Below the pieces are notes generated by a model. It worked only from the letters and a program-made list of their open reading frames with translations, did not search any database and was not told the origin of the DNA. From Halobacteria archaeon (GTDB lineage Archaea; Halobacteriota; Syntropharchaeia; JACQPP01): DNA of 64,000 nt. Location: the NCBI GenBank assembly GCA_038869515.1, contig JAWCQZ010000003.1, positions 126,884 through 190,883 of the forward strand, read 5' to 3'. The number at the start of each line of letters is the position of its first letter. The first letter of the stretch is position 1. Of the stretch, positions 9,041 to 36,812 are shown one piece after another. The translations under genes and the position numbers were made by a program.

Positions 9041-10396
9041 ATGGGGACGGAACTCTCCCCCGTGGTTCCCCGGAGGCCCGGCTCCCAATTGATTCCCGCC
9101 TCCGCCCTCCTCTCCCCCCGGGAGGCCGAGGAGGTCTTCCACGCGGGCGGCGAGGCCATCTGCGTCGCATGCAAGGGGGCTCACCTCCTCTGCGGCAAGG
9201 AGCGGTGCCCCATCCTGACGCGGCTCGCGCTCTTCCAGGCTGCGCGGCCCCTCTTCGAGACCACCGAACTGGCGGGCGCGACACCGCCCGGCGTCTTCGT
9301 CGGGCGGATGGGATACCCGAAGGTGACCATCGGGCCGCTCGTCCCGCCGGTGGGCGGGGACACCACCATCCTCGACATGCCGGAGCAGTGGCTCGGCAAG
9401 CCCATCGAGGAGATCGCCTCGATGCGCTTCTCGCTGGTCCGGGGGAAAATCCGGGTCAACGCCTGCGAGGTGGAGACCTCGGGCAGACTCGTGGACATGA
9501 CCCGAGAGCTGGCGATGGCCGCCTCACCCGCCGACATCGAGGCGGAGTTCACCAGGAAGCCCGCGGGCAAGGTGGTGGTGAACGAGGACTCCCAGCCCTT
9601 CGGCCCCTCGGCGCCACTCAAGGCGCTCGATCTGGGCGACCTGAAGGTGGACCAGCGCATCGAGAAGAGATACGGCGACACCGACCTGAAAGCCAAAGGC
9701 GCAGTCCTCGACCTCTACCGGGACGGCCTGCCGGTGTCGCGCATCCAGCGCTCCTTCAGCGCGGGGCTCTTCGGGTTGAAGAAGAACCGCCACTTCGTCC
9801 CGACTCGCTGGTCCATCACCGCGGTGGACAACGCCATCGGCCTAGACCTCGTCGCGAAGGTGAAGCGCGCCCCCGAAATCAACGAGTTCCGCATCTACGA
9901 GGCGGGCAACCTCGACAACCGCTTCCTGGTCCTCATGCTCCCGATGGCGTGGTCCTACGAGCTCATCGAGGCGTGGTATCCGAACACCCTCTGGAACCCC
10001 CTCGGGAGGCGGACGGTGATTTTCGGGGATTGCGAGTTCTACGAGGGGCGGACCACCTACGCTCAAATCGGCGGATGCTACTATGCGGCACGCCTCGCCG
10101 TCGGCGAGTGTTTGACGAAGGAGAACCGTCAGGCGCGGGTCGTCATCCTCCGGGAGGCCCACCCGGGCTATATCATGCCGGTGGGGGTGTGGAACGTGCG
10201 GGAGACGGTGCGGGAGGCGCTCCGCCACGAGCCGAGGAGGTTCGACCGGCTGAGCGAGGCGCTGGCGCACGTGACGACGCGGCTCGACATACCGCTGGGG
10301 ACGTGGATTCGGCACAGCGGGTTGCTGAGGGATGTGCGAAAACAGAGGCGGTTGGTGGATTTTGCGGAGAAGAAGGAGAGTCTAAGAAATGTTTGA
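9041..10396 (+). CDS. Nre-family DNA-repair-associated protein-like (DUF650/DUF651-like)
   Basis: 451 aa; N-terminal Cys cluster ICVACKGAHLLCGKERCPIL, then a conserved central region; assignment from memory of archaeal Nre proteins, not searched. Confidence 0.55.
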   Translation: MGTELSPVVPRRPGSQLIPASALLSPREAEEVFHAGGEAICVACKGAHLLCGKERCPILTRLALFQAARPLFETTELAGATPPGVFVGRMGYPKVTIGPLVPPVGGDTTILDMPEQWLGKPIEEIASMRFSLVRGKIRVNACEVETSGRLVDMTRELAMAASPADIEAEFTRKPAGKVVVNEDSQPFGPSAPLKALDLGDLKVDQRIEKRYGDTDLKAKGAVLDLYRDGLPVSRIQRSFSAGLFGLKKNRHFVPTRWSITAVDNAIGLDLVAKVKRAPEINEFRIYEAGNLDNRFLVLMLPMAWSYELIEAWYPNTLWNPLGRRTVIFGDCEFYEGRTTYAQIGGCYYAARLAVGECLTKENRQARVVILREAHPGYIMPVGVWNVRETVREALRHEPRRFDRLSEALAHVTTRLDIPLGTWIRHSGLLRDVRKQRRLVDFAEKKESLRNV

Positions 10397-10787
10397 CTTT
10401 GAGCGAGATATGTGCTGTGGAATTGGGCTGTTCATAGGGATTTTTGCATTAATCGGAGGCTTCGTTTCGCTGTTGCCGCAACCATGGAGGGAGCCAGTCG
10501 CTTATGGATTGTCTGTTCCAACTTTGATAGTTCTCGTACTTTACATCTGGGGAACCGCGAAGACTCACGAAGTTCGCGAAAAGGCAGAAGAAACTCGCTT
10601 AAGAGGACTAACCGAGCCTGAATCATTCCTAATCCCCAAATGGAAGAGGAAAGAAATGAGCAGTTCAGAAAGGAAGTGCCCTAGTTGTAAATCTACAGTT
10701 CCGCCTGGAGTCAATATTTGCGGAAGTTGCGGGCATGACTTTTCAATTGACGAGCTTCGGAGGCAGACTAAGTCTCGCGGCGATTGA
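10389..10787 (+). CDS. Small membrane protein with C-terminal zinc ribbon, encoded in a low-G+C segment
   Basis: 132 aa; two TM helices then CPSCKS…CGSCGHDF; codon usage A/T-rich at position 3 (ttt, gat, aaa, tta), unlike flanking genes. Confidence 0.5.
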   Translation: MFDFERDMCCGIGLFIGIFALIGGFVSLLPQPWREPVAYGLSVPTLIVLVLYIWGTAKTHEVREKAEETRLRGLTEPESFLIPKWKRKEMSSSERKCPSCKSTVPPGVNICGSCGHDFSIDELRRQTKSRGD

Positions 10788-10870
10788 GCCGAGTTGCGCA
10801 CCCGACAATCAACTTGTTCTTCTTGCGTAGCCCCCTTGCGCTCGCGCGCGGGCCCTTCATGGGTCGCGGG

Positions 10871-11098
10871 CTATTCCAACAGGCGGAGAAACTCTTCCAC
10901 AGTGAACCCCGCCTGCCGGAGGATGGCTCGCAGGGTCCCCCGCGAGACCTCCGCATGGGCGGGGACGGTCAGAGGCGGCCGCTCAGGGTGGCGCAGGTGG
11001 ATGTGGCTGCCCTTCTGGTCGCGGACGTAGTATCCCGTTTTGCCCAGGGCCCGGAGGACTTCCCGCGCCGACAAAACGGGCAGCCGGGGCACCGCCAA
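10871..11098 (-). CDS. hicA: Type II toxin HicA (mRNA interferase)
   Basis: 75 aa; LSAREVLRALGKTGYYVRDQKGSHIHLRHP…LTVPAH…LRAILRQAGFTVEEF matches the HicA/YcfA fold. Confidence 0.8.
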   Translation of the reverse strand: MAVPRLPVLSAREVLRALGKTGYYVRDQKGSHIHLRHPERPPLTVPAHAEVSRGTLRAILRQAGFTVEEFLRLLE

Positions 11099-11317
11099 TC
11101 ACACGGCGACCGAAACGGTGACCTCTTTGACCTTCGCCGACGGGCGGATGGGGAGGCCGTCCTCGGCCAGGGACTTCAGGTGCAACTCGATGGCCTCCTT
11201 GATGTTCCGCTTGGCATCGGCCACGGTCTTGCCTTGGGAGATGCAGCCCGGCAGGCTCGGCACGGTGGCCACATACCATCCGTCCTCTTCCTTCTCGAGG
11301 TGGACCTTGAACTTCAT
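11099..11317 (-). CDS. hicB: Antitoxin HicB
   Basis: 72 aa from ATG at 11317 (MKFKVHLEKEEDGWYVATVPSLPGCISQGKTVADAKRNIKEAIELHL…), HicB/UPF0150 signature; track start 11449 is an extension across a repeat; TATA-like ATTTAATAGG about 25 bp upstream. Confidence 0.75.
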   Translation of the reverse strand: MKFKVHLEKEEDGWYVATVPSLPGCISQGKTVADAKRNIKEAIELHLKSLAEDGLPIRPSAKVKEVTVSVAV

Positions 11318-11496
11318 CGCCCAATTGTGGGTTTTCAAGCCTATTAAATCTTCACGCCCGCGGGCTGTGCCCGAGAACTCCCCGCAGGAAGTGAACCCGC
11401 AGCTCTCGCACGCTCGCGCGCGGGCCCTCCGGGGTCGCCACTCGCGCAAGCGCGGGGGCTCCCCCGGGCCCGCGCTTGTTGCCGTCCCCCGACGCC

Positions 11497-11533: not shown

Positions 11534-11737
11534 ATGCCCCTCACCACCGTCTCCCTCAAGCCCGAGACCTTGGCGAGCCTGCGGGCCTACAAGGTGGGCG
11601 GGGCGTCCTACGACGACGTCCTCAACGATTTGATGGACGACCACCCCCCCGCGACCTTCGTGCAGGAGCACCTGCGGCGCCTCCGGGAAGAGGAGCGCAG
11701 CGACTGGGAGTCGGCCAAGCGAAAACTGAAGGTCTGA
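11534..11737 (+). CDS. Putative type II antitoxin (partner of the RelE/ParE-like toxin)
   Basis: 67 aa; directly upstream of and 10 bp from the toxin gene; …SYDDVLNDLMDD… resembles archaeal antitoxins. Confidence 0.6.
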   Translation: MPLTTVSLKPETLASLRAYKVGGASYDDVLNDLMDDHPPATFVQEHLRRLREEERSDWESAKRKLKV

Positions 11738-11746
11738 GCCGGGGCC

Positions 11747-12016
11747 GTGGCGCCCTTCGAGGTCCAACTGACCCGGAGCGCCGAGAAGGAGTTGTCCAAG
11801 TTGCCCCGGGAGGCCATCCTGCGGTTCGCCGCGGCCATCGACCGACTTCGGGAGGACCCGAACCACGCGCGGCCCGGCGTGGATGTGAAAAAGCTGAAAG
11901 GGACCCGCTCAGCGTGGCAGCTGCGGGTCGGGGACTACCGGGGCATCTACGAGGTCGAGGGGGACAGGGTCGTGTTCACACGGTTCGCCCACCGGTCGAA
12001 GGTTTACCGAGTGTAG
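11747..12016 (+). CDS. RelE/ParE-family type II toxin
   Basis: 89 aa; …WQLRVGDYRGIYEVEGDRVVFTRFAHRSKVY matches the RelE/ParE C-terminal fold. Confidence 0.8.
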   Translation: MAPFEVQLTRSAEKELSKLPREAILRFAAAIDRLREDPNHARPGVDVKKLKGTRSAWQLRVGDYRGIYEVEGDRVVFTRFAHRSKVYRV

Positions 12017-12017
12017 T

Positions 12018-12452
12018 TCACTTCGCTTGCCCCTTCTTCTTCATCTCCCCGGGGACCGCGTCCATGTCCATGTAGAACGGCTCCCAGATGTGCCCGTCGA
12101 GGTCCTGGAAGGCGCGCCCGTACATCCACCCGTAGTCCTGCTTCTCCCGGTACTCACGGCCTCCCGCGGCCACGGCGCTTTTCAGCATCTCGTCCACCGC
12201 CTTGCGGCTCTCGAGAGAGAGCGCGACGAGGACCTCGGTGCTCTTTTTTGCATCACATATCTCCCGGCCCGGGAGGAACCCCTTGAAGAATTTCTCCGCC
12301 AGCAGCATGGCGAACATGTTCTCCCCGACGACCATGCACGCCGCGTTGTCGTCGGTGAACATCGGGTTGAACTTGAAACCCAGTTTGGCGAAGAATGCGG
12401 TCGTCTTCTTGAGGTCTTTGACCGGCAGGTTGACGAAAATCTTGTCCGCCAT
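12018..12452 (-). CDS. VOC-family (glyoxalase/bleomycin-resistance fold) protein
   Basis: 144 aa from ATG at 12452 (MADKIFVNLPVKDLKKTTAFFAKLGFKF…); the track N-terminal extension has poor codon bias. Confidence 0.75.
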   Translation of the reverse strand: MADKIFVNLPVKDLKKTTAFFAKLGFKFNPMFTDDNAACMVVGENMFAMLLAEKFFKGFLPGREICDAKKSTEVLVALSLESRKAVDEMLKSAVAAGGREYREKQDYGWMYGRAFQDLDGHIWEPFYMDMDAVPGEMKKKGQAK

Positions 12453-12466
12453 CCGCCCCGCGGGCC

Positions 12467-12595
12467 TCACCCCATCCCCATCTTCTTGGCGAACTCCTTC
12501 GCCCGTGCCTTGACCGCCTTGGCGGCGTCCCGGGCGCAGAACGCGGGGGCGAGGGCGCGGTAGCCGTCGGGGATGGGCATTGCTCCGGGGGCCAT
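12467..12595 (-). CDS. Candidate leaderless mini-ORF (42 aa) upstream of the VOC gene
   Basis: Hand-translated (below the track length cut-off): ATG at 12595 sits about 25 bp downstream of TATA box ATATAAAAAAA (12616-12626, minus-strand sense); frame has strong codon-3 G+C; no family recognised. Confidence 0.25.
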   Translation of the reverse strand: MAPGAMPIPDGYRALAPAFCARDAAKAVKARAKEFAKKMGMG

Positions 12596-12961: not shown

Positions 12962-13987
12962 ATGGCGACCCGGCCCCCTCCCCCCGTAGGGATGGTCCTG
13001 TGCGGCGGCCACGGCAAGCGCCTCATGCCCTTGACCCAGGACATCCCCAAGCCCCTCGTGGAGCTCCGGCCCGGATACACCATCCTCGACCGGCAACTCT
13101 TCGACTTCTCCGCCGCGAACATCAACAGGGCCATCCTGCTGACCGGGCACCTCGGCGACAAGATAGAGAAGCGGTACGGGAAGGAGTTCAAGGGCGTGAA
13201 AATCGAGTACTCGGTGGAGGAGGAGCCCAAGGGGACGCTCTTCGCCATCCGCCAGGGCATGGAGATGGCCGGGCCCGGGACGGAGGTCGTGGTCCGGAAC
13301 GGCGACGTGGTCGCCGACGTGAACCTGATGAAGATGATGGCCCACCACCATCGCCACCGGGGCGGGCTCAAGGCGACGATGTTCGTCACTCGGATGCGCT
13401 CCCCCTACGGGATCGTCGAACTCGAAGGCGAGCGCATCCGCTCCTTCCGGGAGAAGCCCATGCTCGACCAGCACATCAACGGGGGCATCTACTGCCTCTC
13501 GCCCGGCATCCCGATGGACGGCTACGACCGGGGCGAAATCGAGAAGACGGTCTTCCCGGCACTCGCGCAGAGCGGAGAACTGGGCCACTACCGGGAGGAG
13601 GGTTTCTGGCTCGCGGTGGACACCGTGAAAGAATTGGAGGAGGCCCGGAAGGAGTACTCGAACCGGGAGGACAAGCCCTGGGGCTACGAGAAGGTCCTCG
13701 TCCGGACGGAGAAGTACATGACCAAGGAGCTGTTCATCCGTGAGGGCTACTCGACGAGCGTCCACTACCACAAGGAGAAGGACGAGACCCTCTACGTCCA
13801 GAGCGGGACGCTCGCGGTCGAGTTCAAGGACGGGGTCAAGAAGACCTTCAACCGCAACGACTCATTCCGGATCACGCCCGGGATGCACCACCGGCTCATC
13901 GGCCTGGAGAACGTGGTGCTCCAGGAGGTCTCGACGCCGCAACTCGACGACACGGTGCGGGTGAAGGACTTCTACGCGGCTCGATGA
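12962..13987 (+). CDS. Sugar-phosphate nucleotidyltransferase with C-terminal cupin domain (mannose-1-phosphate guanylyltransferase-like)
   Basis: 341 aa; N-terminal GGxGxRL nucleotidyltransferase motif (LCGGHGKRLMPLT), C-terminal cupin region; start could be the downstream ATG. Confidence 0.8.
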   Translation: MATRPPPPVGMVLCGGHGKRLMPLTQDIPKPLVELRPGYTILDRQLFDFSAANINRAILLTGHLGDKIEKRYGKEFKGVKIEYSVEEEPKGTLFAIRQGMEMAGPGTEVVVRNGDVVADVNLMKMMAHHHRHRGGLKATMFVTRMRSPYGIVELEGERIRSFREKPMLDQHINGGIYCLSPGIPMDGYDRGEIEKTVFPALAQSGELGHYREEGFWLAVDTVKELEEARKEYSNREDKPWGYEKVLVRTEKYMTKELFIREGYSTSVHYHKEKDETLYVQSGTLAVEFKDGVKKTFNRNDSFRITPGMHHRLIGLENVVLQEVSTPQLDDTVRVKDFYAAR

Positions 13988-15237
13988 GCGCCCCGCGCCC
14001 CATCGGTTTCCTCGGCCTCGGCTACGCCGGGCTGACCACCGCCCTCGGCCTCTGCGAACTGGGCCACTCGGTCGTCGCCTACGACATCGACCCGGAGAAA
14101 ATCCGGGCGCTCGACGCGGGGAGGATTCCGTTTCACGAGCCGGGGCTGCCGGAGCTGCTGAAGAAGCACCGGGGGAAGCGGTTCGCCGCGACCGCGAACG
14201 TGGCGGCCCTCGAGGGGGTCCCGATGGCATTCATCTGCGTCCCGACCCCCTCGAAGGCGGACGGCTCCATCGACACCCGGCACGTCGAGTCTGCCGCCGA
14301 CGCGTTCGCGAAGGCGGCCCCGAAAGCGGTCGCCGTCATGAAGTCCACCGTGGTCCCGGGGACCACGGAGCGGGTCCTCGGCCCCCGGTTCGAGCGCTGG
14401 GCGGTCAATCCGGAATTCCTCCGGGAAGGCTCGGCGGTCCACGACCTCCTCCACCCCGACCGCATTGTCGTCGGTGCGCCCGACCCCAAAACGGCGGGCG
14501 AGGTGGCCGCCCTCTACGCGAAACTCAAGGCCCCGGTGGTCAGGACGACCCCCGCCACCGCCGAGATGATCAAATATGCGAGCAACGCCGCCCTCGCCGC
14601 GAAAATCTCCTTCGCCAACGAGATGGGCAACCTCGCCAAGGCGCTCGGCGTGGATGTCTACGAGGTGATGGAGGGCGTCGGCCTCGACAAGCGCATCGGC
14701 CGCGCATTCCTCGACGCCGGGGCGGGCTTCGGCGGGTCGTGCTTCCCGAAGGACGTGCGGGCCCTCCGGGCGCTCGCGAAGGAGAAGGGGACCGGGACGG
14801 AGGTCATGGACGCCACGCTCCGGGTCAACGACCACCAGCCGGAGCGGATGGTGGCGCTCCTCGAGAAGCACGTGGGGACCCTCGCCGGCAAGACCGTCGC
14901 GGTCCTCGGCCTCGCCTTCAAGCCCGACACCGACGACATCCGGGAGAGCCGGGCCCTCGAAGCCATCCGAATTCTGCGCCAGCGGGAGGCCAGGGTGCGG
15001 GCGTACGACCCTTTGGCCATCGAGGCGACCCGCAAGGTGTTCCCTGATATCGAATACGCCGCCTCCTCCCCGGACGCCCTGGCGGAGGCCGACGGGGCGC
15101 TGGTGATGACCGCATGGCCCGAGTTCCGCAAGATTCCCGCCGAGGCGTGGAGGAGCCTGAAGCATCGCGTGGTCGTCGACGGGAGGCGAGCGGTGAAAGT
15201 GCCGGCCGGGGTCACCTGCGAGGGGCTCTGCTGGTAG
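13984..15237 (+). CDS. Nucleotide-sugar dehydrogenase (UDP-glucose/GDP-mannose 6-dehydrogenase family)
   Basis: 417 aa; N-terminal Rossmann GLGYAG, catalytic GFGGSCFPKD motif. Confidence 0.85.
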   Translation: MSAPRPIGFLGLGYAGLTTALGLCELGHSVVAYDIDPEKIRALDAGRIPFHEPGLPELLKKHRGKRFAATANVAALEGVPMAFICVPTPSKADGSIDTRHVESAADAFAKAAPKAVAVMKSTVVPGTTERVLGPRFERWAVNPEFLREGSAVHDLLHPDRIVVGAPDPKTAGEVAALYAKLKAPVVRTTPATAEMIKYASNAALAAKISFANEMGNLAKALGVDVYEVMEGVGLDKRIGRAFLDAGAGFGGSCFPKDVRALRALAKEKGTGTEVMDATLRVNDHQPERMVALLEKHVGTLAGKTVAVLGLAFKPDTDDIRESRALEAIRILRQREARVRAYDPLAIEATRKVFPDIEYAASSPDALAEADGALVMTAWPEFRKIPAEAWRSLKHRVVVDGRRAVKVPAGVTCEGLCW

Positions 15238-15999
15238 TCAGGACTCCCGCGTCGCCAACCGGTCCGCCTCCAGCAGCGACTCGAACGTCCCGACGTCATA
15301 CCTCTCCCCGTGGAACCGGTGGGCGTAGACGGCGCGGCCCGCCCTCCTCATTTTCTCGACCGCGTCGGTGAGCCACACCTCGCCCCCCCGGCCCGGACGG
15401 GTCTGCGCGAGGAACCTGAAAATCTCCGGGTGGAGCACGAGCAGCCCTGCGATGTTGTAGTAATACCCGTCCACCCTGTAGGGGCGCGCCTGGGCGAGGG
15501 TCGGCTTCTCGACGAGCCCTCGCACCCGGCCCCCCTTCCCGACCTTCACGATGCCGAACCTGCGCGGGTCGTCCACGGGGTGGACCAGCAGCGTGGCCCT
15601 CGCCAGCCTCCGCCTGTGGAGGGCGAAGGCCTCGGCCACCGCGTCCGGGGGCCGGAAGTAGTTGTCCCCGAACATCACCGCGAACTCGTCGTCCCCGACC
15701 CAGGAGCGGGCCAGCGAGACCGCATGCCCCACGCCCTTCGGTTCCTCCTGGACGCGGTAGGCAACTTCGAGGCCGAACTGCCGCCCCGAGCCGAGGTAGT
15801 CGAGGATGGCCCCCTTCCGCCACCCAACGATGACCAGGACCTCCTCGACGCCGCCCGACCGGAGGGCCTCCAGGACGTGGTGGATGACCGGCTTGGTGCC
15901 GACGCGGATGAGCTCCTTGGGGATGGCCTGGGTGAGGGGGGCGAGGCGGCTTCCGACTCCCGCTGCGGGGACGACTGCCTTCCGGATGGGGGCGGGCAT
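15238..15999 (-). CDS. Sugar nucleotidyltransferase (glucose-1-phosphate thymidylyl/uridylyltransferase-like)
   Basis: 253 aa; AVVPAAGVGSRLAPLTQAIPKEL N-terminal motif. Confidence 0.85.
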   Translation of the reverse strand: MPAPIRKAVVPAAGVGSRLAPLTQAIPKELIRVGTKPVIHHVLEALRSGGVEEVLVIVGWRKGAILDYLGSGRQFGLEVAYRVQEEPKGVGHAVSLARSWVGDDEFAVMFGDNYFRPPDAVAEAFALHRRRLARATLLVHPVDDPRRFGIVKVGKGGRVRGLVEKPTLAQARPYRVDGYYYNIAGLLVLHPEIFRFLAQTRPGRGGEVWLTDAVEKMRRAGRAVYAHRFHGERYDVGTFESLLEADRLATRES

Positions 16000-35486: not shown

Positions 35487-36812
35487 ATGAATATGAAAAC
35501 CAGCAAGACACTTTTCGCCATTTTCGTCATCACCCTCTTCGCCGCCACCATGGTTCCGGCCCAGGCCCAAGAAACTGCCCGCGAGAAGGCTTCGGAAGAG
35601 GCCAAGGAGCGGACGGCCCGGGAAGCCAAAGAACGCGCAGCCGAGGAGGCCAAGGAACGCGGTCTCGAGCGGGCCAAGGAGATGGCCTCCGAGCGTGGCA
35701 AGGAGATGGGCCTCAAGCGGGCCGAGGAGGCGAAGAAGCGCGCCAGCGAGGCCAGGCAGAAGGCCGCTGAGGCCGGGCAGAAGGCCGCCGAGGCCGAGCA
35801 GAAGGGCGACATCGCCAAGGCCCGGGTCGAAGAGGCCAAGCAGCGCCACGAAGAGGCGCGCGAGAAGGCCCAAGCGGCCATGGAGAGGCTCGAGAACGCC
35901 AAGGACCGCGCCGCCAGCGCCAAGGAACGGCATGATGCCGCCCGTGAGAACGCGAAGGAGTTCCGCGAGAACGCCAAGCAGGCCCACGAGCGGTTCTCCC
36001 AGGCCAAGCAGCGGTTCCAGGAGTTCAAGGGCAAGGCCATCGCGACGGGCAAGGACCGGAAGGCGGCCCTCGAGGCCACCGCCGACGTCCAGGTCGCCGC
36101 CGCGACCGAGGTCCAGTCCACCGTGGACGAGACCGCCGCCGTGACCGAGGAGACGGTCGAAGCTCTCCGGGCCGACAGCGACCTGACCGGGGCGGAGCAG
36201 CAGGAGATTCTGGACGAGTCGGGGGTGCTTGAGGTCGCCCCCGAGGCCGCCTCCGGCAGCGAGGACCTCGGCGCCATCGCCAGCGAGACCGAGGCCGAAA
36301 CCACGACCATCCCCAGCGAACCGGACGAGAAGACCTACAACGAGAAGAAGGAGAAACTCAAGGAGAAACTCGAGAAACTCAAGAAGAAGCACGCCGAACT
36401 CCAGCACAAGCACAAGGCGCACGTCTGCAAAGTGATTTCCGCCAAGATGCTCCACGCCATCAAGAAGGCGCAGAAGTTCGCCGACCGGCTCGAACTGCAG
36501 GGGAAGGACGTGTCCACCCTGCGGGCCAAAATCACCGACGCCATCGCCGAGGCCAAGGACATCGCGAGACTCTGCAGGAGCATCAAGGATGCCAGAGGCG
36601 TGGACGCCATCGTGAGGGAGGTCCAGCCGAAGATTCAGGAACTCCGCAAGAGCCTCCAAGAGGCCTTCGTCCTCCTGAAGCAGCAGGCTGGACTGCCCGC
36701 CGCGAGCCCGAGCCCGTTGCCTCCGGTGACGGCCCCGGCGCCGGCTCCGACCACGGCTCCAGCACCCGCACCTACAACGGCCGCCTCCCCGGCGGCTGCC
36801 GCCTCTCCGTAA
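35487..36812 (+). CDS. Secreted coiled-coil protein with AKER/EEAK repeats and C-terminal Pro/Thr/Ala-rich tail
   Basis: 441 aa; signal peptide (MNMKTSKTLFAIFVITLFAATMVPAQA), long Lys/Glu/Ala/Arg-rich helical repeats, PAPAPTT tail; GGAGGTGA ribosome-binding-like site before the ATG. Confidence 0.65.
   Translation: MNMKTSKTLFAIFVITLFAATMVPAQAQETAREKASEEAKERTAREAKERAAEEAKERGLERAKEMASERGKEMGLKRAEEAKKRASEARQKAAEAGQKAAEAEQKGDIAKARVEEAKQRHEEAREKAQAAMERLENAKDRAASAKERHDAARENAKEFRENAKQAHERFSQAKQRFQEFKGKAIATGKDRKAALEATADVQVAAATEVQSTVDETAAVTEETVEALRADSDLTGAEQQEILDESGVLEVAPEAASGSEDLGAIASETEAETTTIPSEPDEKTYNEKKEKLKEKLEKLKKKHAELQHKHKAHVCKVISAKMLHAIKKAQKFADRLELQGKDVSTLRAKITDAIAEAKDIARLCRSIKDARGVDAIVREVQPKIQELRKSLQEAFVLLKQQAGLPAASPSPLPPVTAPAPAPTTAPAPAPTTAASPAAAASP

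Follow-up and report, generated by a model that had tools for sequence, protein, structure and literature searches.

The 64,000-nt stretch analysed here (the window; positions 126,884 to 190,883 of contig JAWCQZ010000003.1 in NCBI GenBank assembly GCA_038869515.1, from a Halobacteria archaeon placed by GTDB in Archaea; Halobacteriota; Syntropharchaeia; JACQPP01) carries, directly 3′ of a nre gene, a conserved DNA-repair gene, a short open reading frame (ORF) that we call orfX. A sequence-only reading of this DNA had picked out orfX as a gene of markedly low G+C in a high-G+C genome, had likened its product to membrane zinc-ribbon proteins of phage-defence and toxin contexts, and had proposed that it was recently acquired by horizontal transfer. 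The features of the locus on which our analysis centers are these:

9041..10396, + strand: nreA, with Nre_N and Nre_C domains (Pfam E = 2e-93 and 5e-41).
10343..10366, + strand: PIP-like box (PIP, PCNA-interacting motif) QRRLVDFA, Nre residues 435-442, recognized from orthologue tails; the last conserved nre element before the breakpoint.
10373..10380, + strand: Shine-Dalgarno-like site AAGGAGAG, read from the sequence; a putative ribosome-binding site.
10375..10825, + strand: candidate foreign low-G+C cassette of ~451 nt, set by the end of homology with the relative L001 at 10374, by a maximum-likelihood segment at 10339-10824 and by repeat R, which begins at 10826.
10389..10787, + strand: orfX, 132 residues, with two predicted transmembrane (TM) segments and a C-terminal zinc ribbon; taken from the ORF list, with a G+C at third codon positions (GC3) of 0.45, and absent from gene tables.
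10413..10475, + strand: predicted TM helix 1, orfX residues 9-29 (Kyte-Doolittle 19-residue windows up to 2.36; helix 4-26 in the AlphaFold2 (AF2) model).
10497..10553, + strand: predicted TM helix 2, orfX residues 37-55 (Kyte-Doolittle up to 1.86; AF2 helix 31-75).
10665..10742, + strand: predicted C4 zinc ribbon, orfX residues 93-118, with C97, C100, C111 and C114 (Pfam, exhaustive HMMER and AF2).
10826..10867, + strand: repeat R copy 1, with its core CGCTCGCGCGCGGGCCCT at 10839-10856, flanked by the cassette and the hicA 3′ end.

The composition of orfX sets it apart from everything else in the window. Its G+C content is 47.1%, compared with 69.3% for the 64 kb as a whole (z = −5.4 against all 399-nt windows), and the 0.11% of 399-nt windows that are equally low all overlap this locus, which is the only site in the window where a 399-nt stretch falls below 55% G+C. 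Among 33 confidently called genes the mean was 68.3% (sd 3.5) and the minimum 60.9%, placing orfX outside the gene-to-gene range of its host rather than within normal variation. The difference is concentrated in codon choice: G+C over the three codon positions is 0.49/0.47/0.45 in orfX and 0.64/0.46/0.90 in nre, GC3 ranged from 0.82 to 0.96 across a comparison set of genes that was itself chosen by GC3 ≥ 0.8, and inspection of the sequence shows A/T-ending codons such as ttt, gat, att, ata, tta and gca, among others. Two-boundary maximum-likelihood segmentation delimited a low-G+C segment at 10339-10824 (47.3% G+C) that has no second copy in the window and whose tetranucleotide distance was the largest among 1271 windows (z = 8.2). 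The low G+C and A/T-ending codons that had been read from the letters (GC3 0.45 versus 0.90 for nre) were thus confirmed, with orfX a strong outlier in G+C, GC3 and tetranucleotides alike.

The left boundary of the anomaly lies inside nre. The product of this gene fits the definition of NreA, with both domains, an N-terminal Cys4 cluster and a C-terminal PIP motif, PCNA binding being predicted from the motif only. The N-terminal Cys4 is an optional feature described for many NreA proteins (PMC4929162), and the C-terminal PCNA-interacting motif, QXXhXXaa, is required for function in Haloferax volcanii (PMC4929162). All 24 orthologue tails showed the pattern Q-x-x-[LIV]-x-x-[FY]-x, beyond which lie 0-14 variable residues. 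DNA of L001 aligned at 87% identity to window positions 9001-10374 and then stopped (blastn and alignment), three codons past the PIP-like box. Because the conserved box is encoded there and L001 aligns to 10374, 10339-10374 appears to be native nre sequence, A/T-richer through its amino acids and through A/T-ending codons (gat ttt) that L001 also has. The shift had been placed roughly 50 bp before the start of orfX, and segmentation did begin there, at 10339; however, most of the part inside nre is the native PIP-box region, and only the last 22 nt of nre are new, comprising seven codons (K445-V451, five of seven ending in A or T) and the stop. Comparison of the C-terminus gave a matching picture: the PIP region is conserved in orthologues, but the last 7-9 residues are not. 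The Nre cysteines, read from the translation, are C41, C44, C51 and C56 (9161-9208). The annotated Nre start may lie too far upstream, since orthologues align only from residue ~30-40.

We recovered four related genomes at this site, L001 (Nre 91% identical; the closest relative in the species-representative genome set), L032 (88%; Logan assembly of SRR22388343), L033 (81%) and L034 (69%), and orfX was absent from all four. The genes upstream are kept. In L001 these are two small genes, g8245 and g8553, and nre; in L032 synteny extends for >6 kb through Amt, MTD, FpoO, SepF, a nitroreductase, a 78-aa gene and nre. No orthologue of the same composition, which would have spoken for an old resident gene, was present at the site in any of the four, and orfX is missing from relatives that retain its flanking genes. 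What follows nre instead differs among them. In L032 it is a 464-nt stretch of ~46% G+C (46.4%), and in L032 and L001 a different ORF, which we call cassette B, is located there:

L032 7343-7792: cassette B, an intact ORF of 149 aa (MGQKGLSLQLKFDPTHVEDM...) with a GC3 of 0.46, its ATG adjoining the nre stop (TAATG).
L001 1943-2156: cassette B, a homologous ORF that overlaps the nre stop (ATGA) and has a GC3 of 0.62.

Cassette B is unrelated to orfX and encodes a soluble protein. The two copies are 62% identical over the first 55 residues, the sole alignable part, and we found no Pfam family, homologue, viral relative or counterpart elsewhere in the window for this ORF. Sequence 3′ of nre in L033 is of a third kind, with 61% G+C. 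In L034 and in more distant Thermoplasmata-type loci, reading of the translations placed a SplB-like radical SAM gene after nre, with or without a preceding Nudix-like gene; SplB-like enzymes are also discussed in the Nre section of PMC4929162. A sugar-nucleotide cluster (NTP-transferase/cupin, UDP-glucose dehydrogenase, NTP-transferase) that lies downstream of nre in the window (12962-15999) is upstream of nre and inverted in L034 (2045-5329), an arrangement that would be accounted for by an inversion having one of its ends at the nre 3′ end. From this inverted gene order, the nre 3′ end would be a rearrangement breakpoint in the clade. The contigs of L001, L032, L033 and L034 all stop 100-500 nt past nre, which suggests that, in several independent metagenomes, the site is either heterogeneous in the population or repeated. 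Separately, orfX was considered as a conserved partner of nre and rejected, with a TM or zinc-ribbon gene downstream of nre in 0 of 24 orthologous loci.

On the right, the low-G+C segment ends at 10824-10825 and abuts R at 10826. R is a direct repeat of 31-42 nt whose exact 18-nt core occurs twice in the window (0.12 expected by chance), and its two copies bracket a hicAB toxin-antitoxin (TA) module; a second TA module follows:

10871-11098 and 11099-11317, − strand: hicA and hicB, a TA module convergent with orfX (Pfam HicA_toxin E = 1.9e-18; HicB_lk_antitox E = 2.3e-12).
11398..11438, + strand: repeat R copy 2, upstream of hicB, its core forming the left arm of a GC-rich hairpin at 11418-11475.
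11534..12016, + strand: second type II TA module, with a 67-aa putative antitoxin (11534-11737) and a ParE/RelE-family toxin (11747-12016).

For the second module Pfam gave ParE_toxin at E = 5.5e-11 and a weak DUF7557 match (E = 0.0033). The core of R is also present in L032 at 7809-7835, 15 nt after the cassette B stop and at the contig end. These are the three known copies; no other was found in the window or in the other loci, and no exact match was found in viral contigs. R could be a duplicated regulatory palindrome or operator of the TA modules, or a recombination or insertion footprint. The imperfect palindrome at 11418-11475 lies in the divergent hicB/relB-like intergenic region, has 10-nt perfect outer arms (GCGCGGGCCC/GGGCCCGCGC) and inner arms CAAGCGCGGG/CCCGCGCTTG, and forms a more stable fold than shuffled sequence (z = −2.3 and −2.5 for the + and − strands, respectively); it may be a shared operator. 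Adjoining the TA modules is a Ble-like/glyoxalase-fold gene (12018-12470) with a GC3 of 0.82, compared with 0.90-0.96 in core genes, and because of this lowered GC3 the accessory islet may span 10375 to ~12900. Two other accounts of the low-G+C stretch were tried and set aside: a mobile element, since there are no terminal inverted repeats or target-site duplication around 10339-10870 but only short repeats at chance level, and a structural RNA, since no tRNA or Rfam family was found near the locus.

Taken together, these results lead us to read 10375-10825 as a small accessory cassette of foreign, lower-G+C origin at a variable site 3′ of nreA, to which we assign a probability of about 0.72. 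Horizontal acquisition is the best explanation because a break in composition, absence from relatives, the lack of a full-length homologue (below) and a variable position coincide. The cassette consists of the new last seven codons of nre, the Shine-Dalgarno-like site, orfX and a 38-nt 3′ spacer. Its arrival, presumably by horizontal transfer or as the replacement of an earlier cassette, would have given nre a new seven-codon tail and stop and would have brought its own Shine-Dalgarno-like site and ATG. The slot between the nre stop and R is variable and lies where conserved synteny ends; in the window lineage its cassette may have replaced cassette B or be an alternative to it, and the same islet has also gathered the two TA modules.

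Several observations weigh against this reading. The GC-normalized dinucleotide signature of 10339-10824 is ordinary (z = 0.35), and because of this the anomaly is essentially one of G+C and codon choice; beyond G+C, composition offers no pointer to a foreign origin. The nearly flat G+C over codon positions is a weak coding signal, and the gene tables of three assemblies list no gene at orfX. A donor or closer homologue in a distant lineage was not found in protein, metagenome, viral, phage or plasmid searches; no vector, donor, integrase or transposase was identified for the cassette, and no integrase family is among the Pfam assignments of the genes within about 6 kb of nre on either side. 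Furthermore, the alignable part of cassette B has a nonsynonymous divergence (dN) of 0.30 and a synonymous divergence (dS) of 2.4 between L001 and L032, whereas comparisons of nre between the window, L001 and L032 gave a dS of 0.50-0.60. Either the two genomes acquired different alleles independently at one and the same site, or cassette B resided there for long and evolved fast without drifting to the host G+C, and long residence without such amelioration could weaken the argument that low G+C marks a recent arrival. Because either reading makes it recurrent at this slot, low G+C looks like a recurring property of the occupant of the site and not a clean clock, in a comparison that rests on five related loci, four of them truncated. 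The proposal of recent horizontal acquisition therefore held in its horizontal part, given the break at 10374/10375, the edge at R and the alternative cassette, but its recency is not proven, with a dS of 2.4 for cassette B against 0.5 for nre.

The product of orfX is predicted to be a small membrane protein. Kyte-Doolittle analysis identified strongly hydrophobic segments at residues 8-30 and 36-56, and the translation contains two CxxC knuckles (C97-P-S-C100 ... C111-G-S-C114), so that the architecture of two hydrophobic helices and a C97-x2-C100...C111-x2-C114 ribbon that had been noticed earlier was found. An AF2 single-sequence model (mean predicted local distance difference test score, pLDDT, of 67.7) placed helices over residues 4-26 and 31-75 and short beta elements within the 95-117 region; pLDDT was ~80 at residues 101-120. 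The second TM helix runs on as a charged helix to residue ~75, which would lie in the cytoplasm. Because the C-terminal tail contains 16 K+R, the positive-inside rule places this tail in the cytoplasm, and both termini and the ribbon are likely cytoplasmic. The ribbon matched Zn_ribbon_3 (PF13248) at E = 5.3e-6 and 26.1 bits, just under the cut-off of 27.0, and more weakly UPF0547 (PF10571; 25.4 versus 29) and DZR (PF12773; 22.9 versus 27.3), also below their cut-offs; phmmer matched it to ribbon repeats at E = 8e-8 and lower. Like the ribbons in these families, orfX has CPxC...x10...CGxCG knuckles, and its motif CP-C---VPPG---C--CGH-F is common to hundreds of ribbon repeats; zinc binding is predicted. 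Unlike them, orfX falls under every gathering cut-off and joins the ribbon to two TM segments and a linker that have no relatives, and the family names are uninformative on function.

Searches for homologues of orfX repeatedly returned the ribbon alone. A word-indexed search of 5.8 billion proteins gave no match. Exhaustive HMMER against 1.84 billion representative proteins gave 39 matches at E ≤ 1e-3, 38 of them in or around the zinc ribbon and mostly to proteins with many ribbon repeats, and a full-length homologue was not found in this set. One match, P0005, has N-terminal hydrophobic helices followed by a ribbon and 'FSVDEL', with 36% identity over 58 residues only. Back-translated scans of viral and metagenome contigs and blastn against phage and plasmid collections gave no match, an NCBIfam scan nothing meaningful, and a PDB sequence search nothing under E = 0.2. 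With the structural model, Foldseek against BFVD and PDB returned nothing with E < 0.09 and local ribbon superpositions only; these included matches to NZF/RanBP2 ribbons (rmsd 0.7-0.9 over 23 aa, E > 1), and the predicted beta-hairpin superposes on RanBP2/NZF-type ribbons over 23-29 residues (E > 1). By these searches orfX appears to be an orphan with a generic zinc ribbon.

The same searches bear on whether orfX belongs to defence or toxin systems. PADLOC-DB 2.0 gave 0 families at E ≤ 0.1, and no TA family was matched in Pfam. Eight PHROG families matched, all in or around the ribbon, and seven of them are of unknown function. With no PADLOC match, ribbon-only PHROG matches and no significant structural match, the resemblance to membrane zinc-ribbon proteins of phage-defence and toxin contexts could not be upheld, and the sole link between orfX and such systems is its position beside hicAB and the relE/parE-type module. 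Nor does orfX behave as a TA component, being convergent with hicA, separated from it by R, and overlapping the nre stop instead. We nevertheless considered whether orfX might be a membrane-acting toxin or abortive-infection effector of a TA/defence islet, in which the TM hairpin would disrupt the membrane and the ribbon would sense or regulate. Small two-TM proteins are frequent among the effectors of defence systems, orfX shares its islet with the two TA modules, and it is an AT-rich orphan at a variable locus. Against this stand not only the PADLOC and PHROG results but also its orientation, which together with coupling to nre puts it outside both TA operons, the absence of a partner gene from the cassette, and the finding that the alternative cassette of the relatives encodes a soluble, unrelated protein. 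We therefore regard an effector role as unlikely.

For the product of orfX we favor, as most plausible, the role of an interaction module tethered to the membrane, where it would hold a protein or nucleic acid as its partner. It would be built from a two-helix membrane hairpin, followed by a charged linker helix and, at the C-terminus, a C4 zinc ribbon. Two groups of haloarchaeal proteins provide points of comparison. CdpC anchors FtsZ1 to the membrane in Haloferax volcanii (bioRxiv 10.64898/2026.07.16.738847). Its layout resembles the one predicted for orfX, with a membrane-binding N-terminus, a linker and a C-terminal C4 ribbon for a cytoplasmic partner, a likeness by analogy and not homology. 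Unlike orfX, CdpC uses an amphipathic helix, a second (C3H) zinc site and a long disordered linker and is conserved across haloarchaea, whereas orfX has two TM helices and is an orphan. The CPxCG zinc-finger proteins (Brz, PMC2253796; H. volcanii micro-proteins, PMC6562870) are, like orfX, small proteins of Halobacteriota with a single C4 module. They are soluble, usually <70-100 aa and carry two CPxCG motifs, in contrast to the 132 aa of orfX, its CPSCK and CGSCG and its predicted membrane anchor; with two TM segments and no pair of CPxCG motifs it falls outside the group, and its Pfam matches at E ≤ 0.1 included no DUF family, hence none of those used for this group.

Another explanation is that the low-G+C sequence is native or evolved locally, under AT-biased mutation with little selection on codon usage, and that orfX and cassette B are young genes that arose in place or are decaying. 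This would account for low-G+C sequence at the same position in three related genomes, for the contrast in dS between cassette B and nre and its alignment over 55 N-terminal residues only, for the failure to find a homologue of either cassette, and for a dinucleotide signature that does not look foreign. However, the ribbon matches a widespread family, at E = 5e-6 in Pfam and down to 1e-7 and lower in phmmer, making de novo origin unlikely; the abrupt compositional edges coincide with the break in homology and with R; and orfX and cassette B are unrelated, pointing to replacement and not divergence. On balance we consider local origin improbable and favor the foreign cassette.

A bolder extension of the foreign-cassette reading is that the interval from the nre stop to CGCTCGCGCGCGGGCCCT is a dedicated exchange site, at which unrelated orphan cassettes of ~450 nt and low G+C are swapped in by an integron-like or recombination-driven process without a recognizable integrase. 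Integrons have been reported in archaeal metagenome-assembled genomes (MAGs). As with integron cassettes, the units here are ~450-570 nt long, apparently promoterless, contain one or two genes and have a repeated motif, R, between them; they include orphan genes as well as a TA module, and the content at one position differs between relatives. Unlike integrons, the locus has no integrase family within ~6 kb of nre, the hicAB unit is oppositely oriented, R is short (18-31 nt) and known in three copies, and a hairpin is present at copy 2 only. We offer this extension as a speculation with little chance of being correct. If it were true, each swapped cassette would start overlapping or abutting the nre stop, so that a PCNA-linked DNA-repair gene would control variable accessory proteins, and the islet would be a short array of R-bounded units, since the same motif brackets hicAB.

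A further concern is whether orfX is a gene at all, or whether the ORF is spurious and the low-G+C stretch a non-coding, unexpressed remnant or pseudogene fragment of foreign DNA. It is absent from the gene tables of three assemblies, its G+C is flat over codon positions, its codons are rare for the host, and an ORF of at least 132 codons arose in 36 of 5000 shuffles of the low-G+C segment (0.7%; p ~0.007). On the other hand, the frame is open through the whole low-G+C stretch, two clean TM segments and an intact four-cysteine ribbon share one frame, and translation signals are in place: the ATG of orfX overlaps the nre stop by 8 nt (ATGTTTGA), and the GGAG core of the Shine-Dalgarno-like site (10375-10378) ends 10 nt before it, within the non-homologous segment. 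A missing gene call is also of limited weight, as gene finders can be expected to give low scores to ORFs of 47% G+C when the genome has 69%, and the intact cassette B ORF of L032 is likewise missing from its gene table. A spurious ORF thus seems most improbable, and we take orfX to be a real or very recently real gene. Visual reading of the ~90 nt upstream of orfX revealed no TATA-like element, and because of this expression would likely occur through nre read-through and coupling: orfX is probably transcribed together with nre and translated by coupling or re-initiation. Its level would be low, because A/T-ending codons are rare in this host.

The sequence itself recurs in independent data. 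Positions 10339-10870 (532 nt) recur at 100% identity in the Logan per-run assemblies of SRR27730036 and SRR27730035, and the same sequence is present in NCBI GCA_038869275.1 (contig JAWCRK010000003.1, 'MAG: Halobacteria archaeon'). Although the window derives from a MAG and the low-G+C piece is short, the probability that a piece of a co-occurring low-G+C organism was stitched into the contig is negligible, because both junctions and all 532 nt are identical in assemblies of different runs (a chimera with two identical junctions being very unlikely), the flanks on either side belong to the same high-G+C genome, and the unrelated run SRR22388343 (L032) has the same structure with another cassette. 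Inside nre, at 10222-10247, the SRR27730035 assembly (L030) shows eight differences in 26 nt and none elsewhere in 6.2 kb, and because of this cluster it is more than a copy of one consensus. L001 shares three of the eight variants, and the cluster resembles a short tract of recombination or a variant from a co-existing strain. A literature search by accession and run number found no publication.

The missing gene call has consequences for database searches. In the gene tables of L026, L027 and L030, Nre is followed directly by HicA (HicB in L030), and because no gene was called there the exact orfX product is not on record in a protein look-up; protein databases are consequently blind to orfX in relatives. 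The products of both orfX and cassette B were absent from the protein collection that we searched. It appears that gene calling may systematically overlook low-G+C accessory genes in high-G+C MAGs, to which protein-only searches can then be blind.

AT-rich orphan genes (ORFans) derived from integrative elements or viruses are a well-described general phenomenon in prokaryotic genomes, and their acquisition has reportedly been documented in earlier studies. Like them, orfX is short, low in G+C, without homologues, absent from close relatives and located at a synteny break beside TA modules. Unlike typical cases, its locus has no recognized integrase, tRNA target or mobile element, it is a single gene of ~450 nt fused in register to the end of a core gene, and the far side of its cassette is bounded by a short motif kept in a relative. 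As a finding, one more AT-rich orphan gene in a variable islet is of an ordinary kind, with a slightly unusual locus structure. The interest of the locus is as a compact natural case of gene replacement at a fixed site, framed by the PIP-box end of nreA and by a short conserved motif, where two unrelated cassettes occupy genomes whose nre differ by only ~10% at the protein level; with more genomes from the clade it would be a tractable place to study small-cassette exchange in archaea.

Elsewhere in the window, the strongest tetranucleotide and dinucleotide outlier after the orfX locus was 35598-35805, a region of imperfect tandem repeats with 24-nt and 21-nt periods, ~3 copies each, inside a 441-aa ORF (35487-36812).

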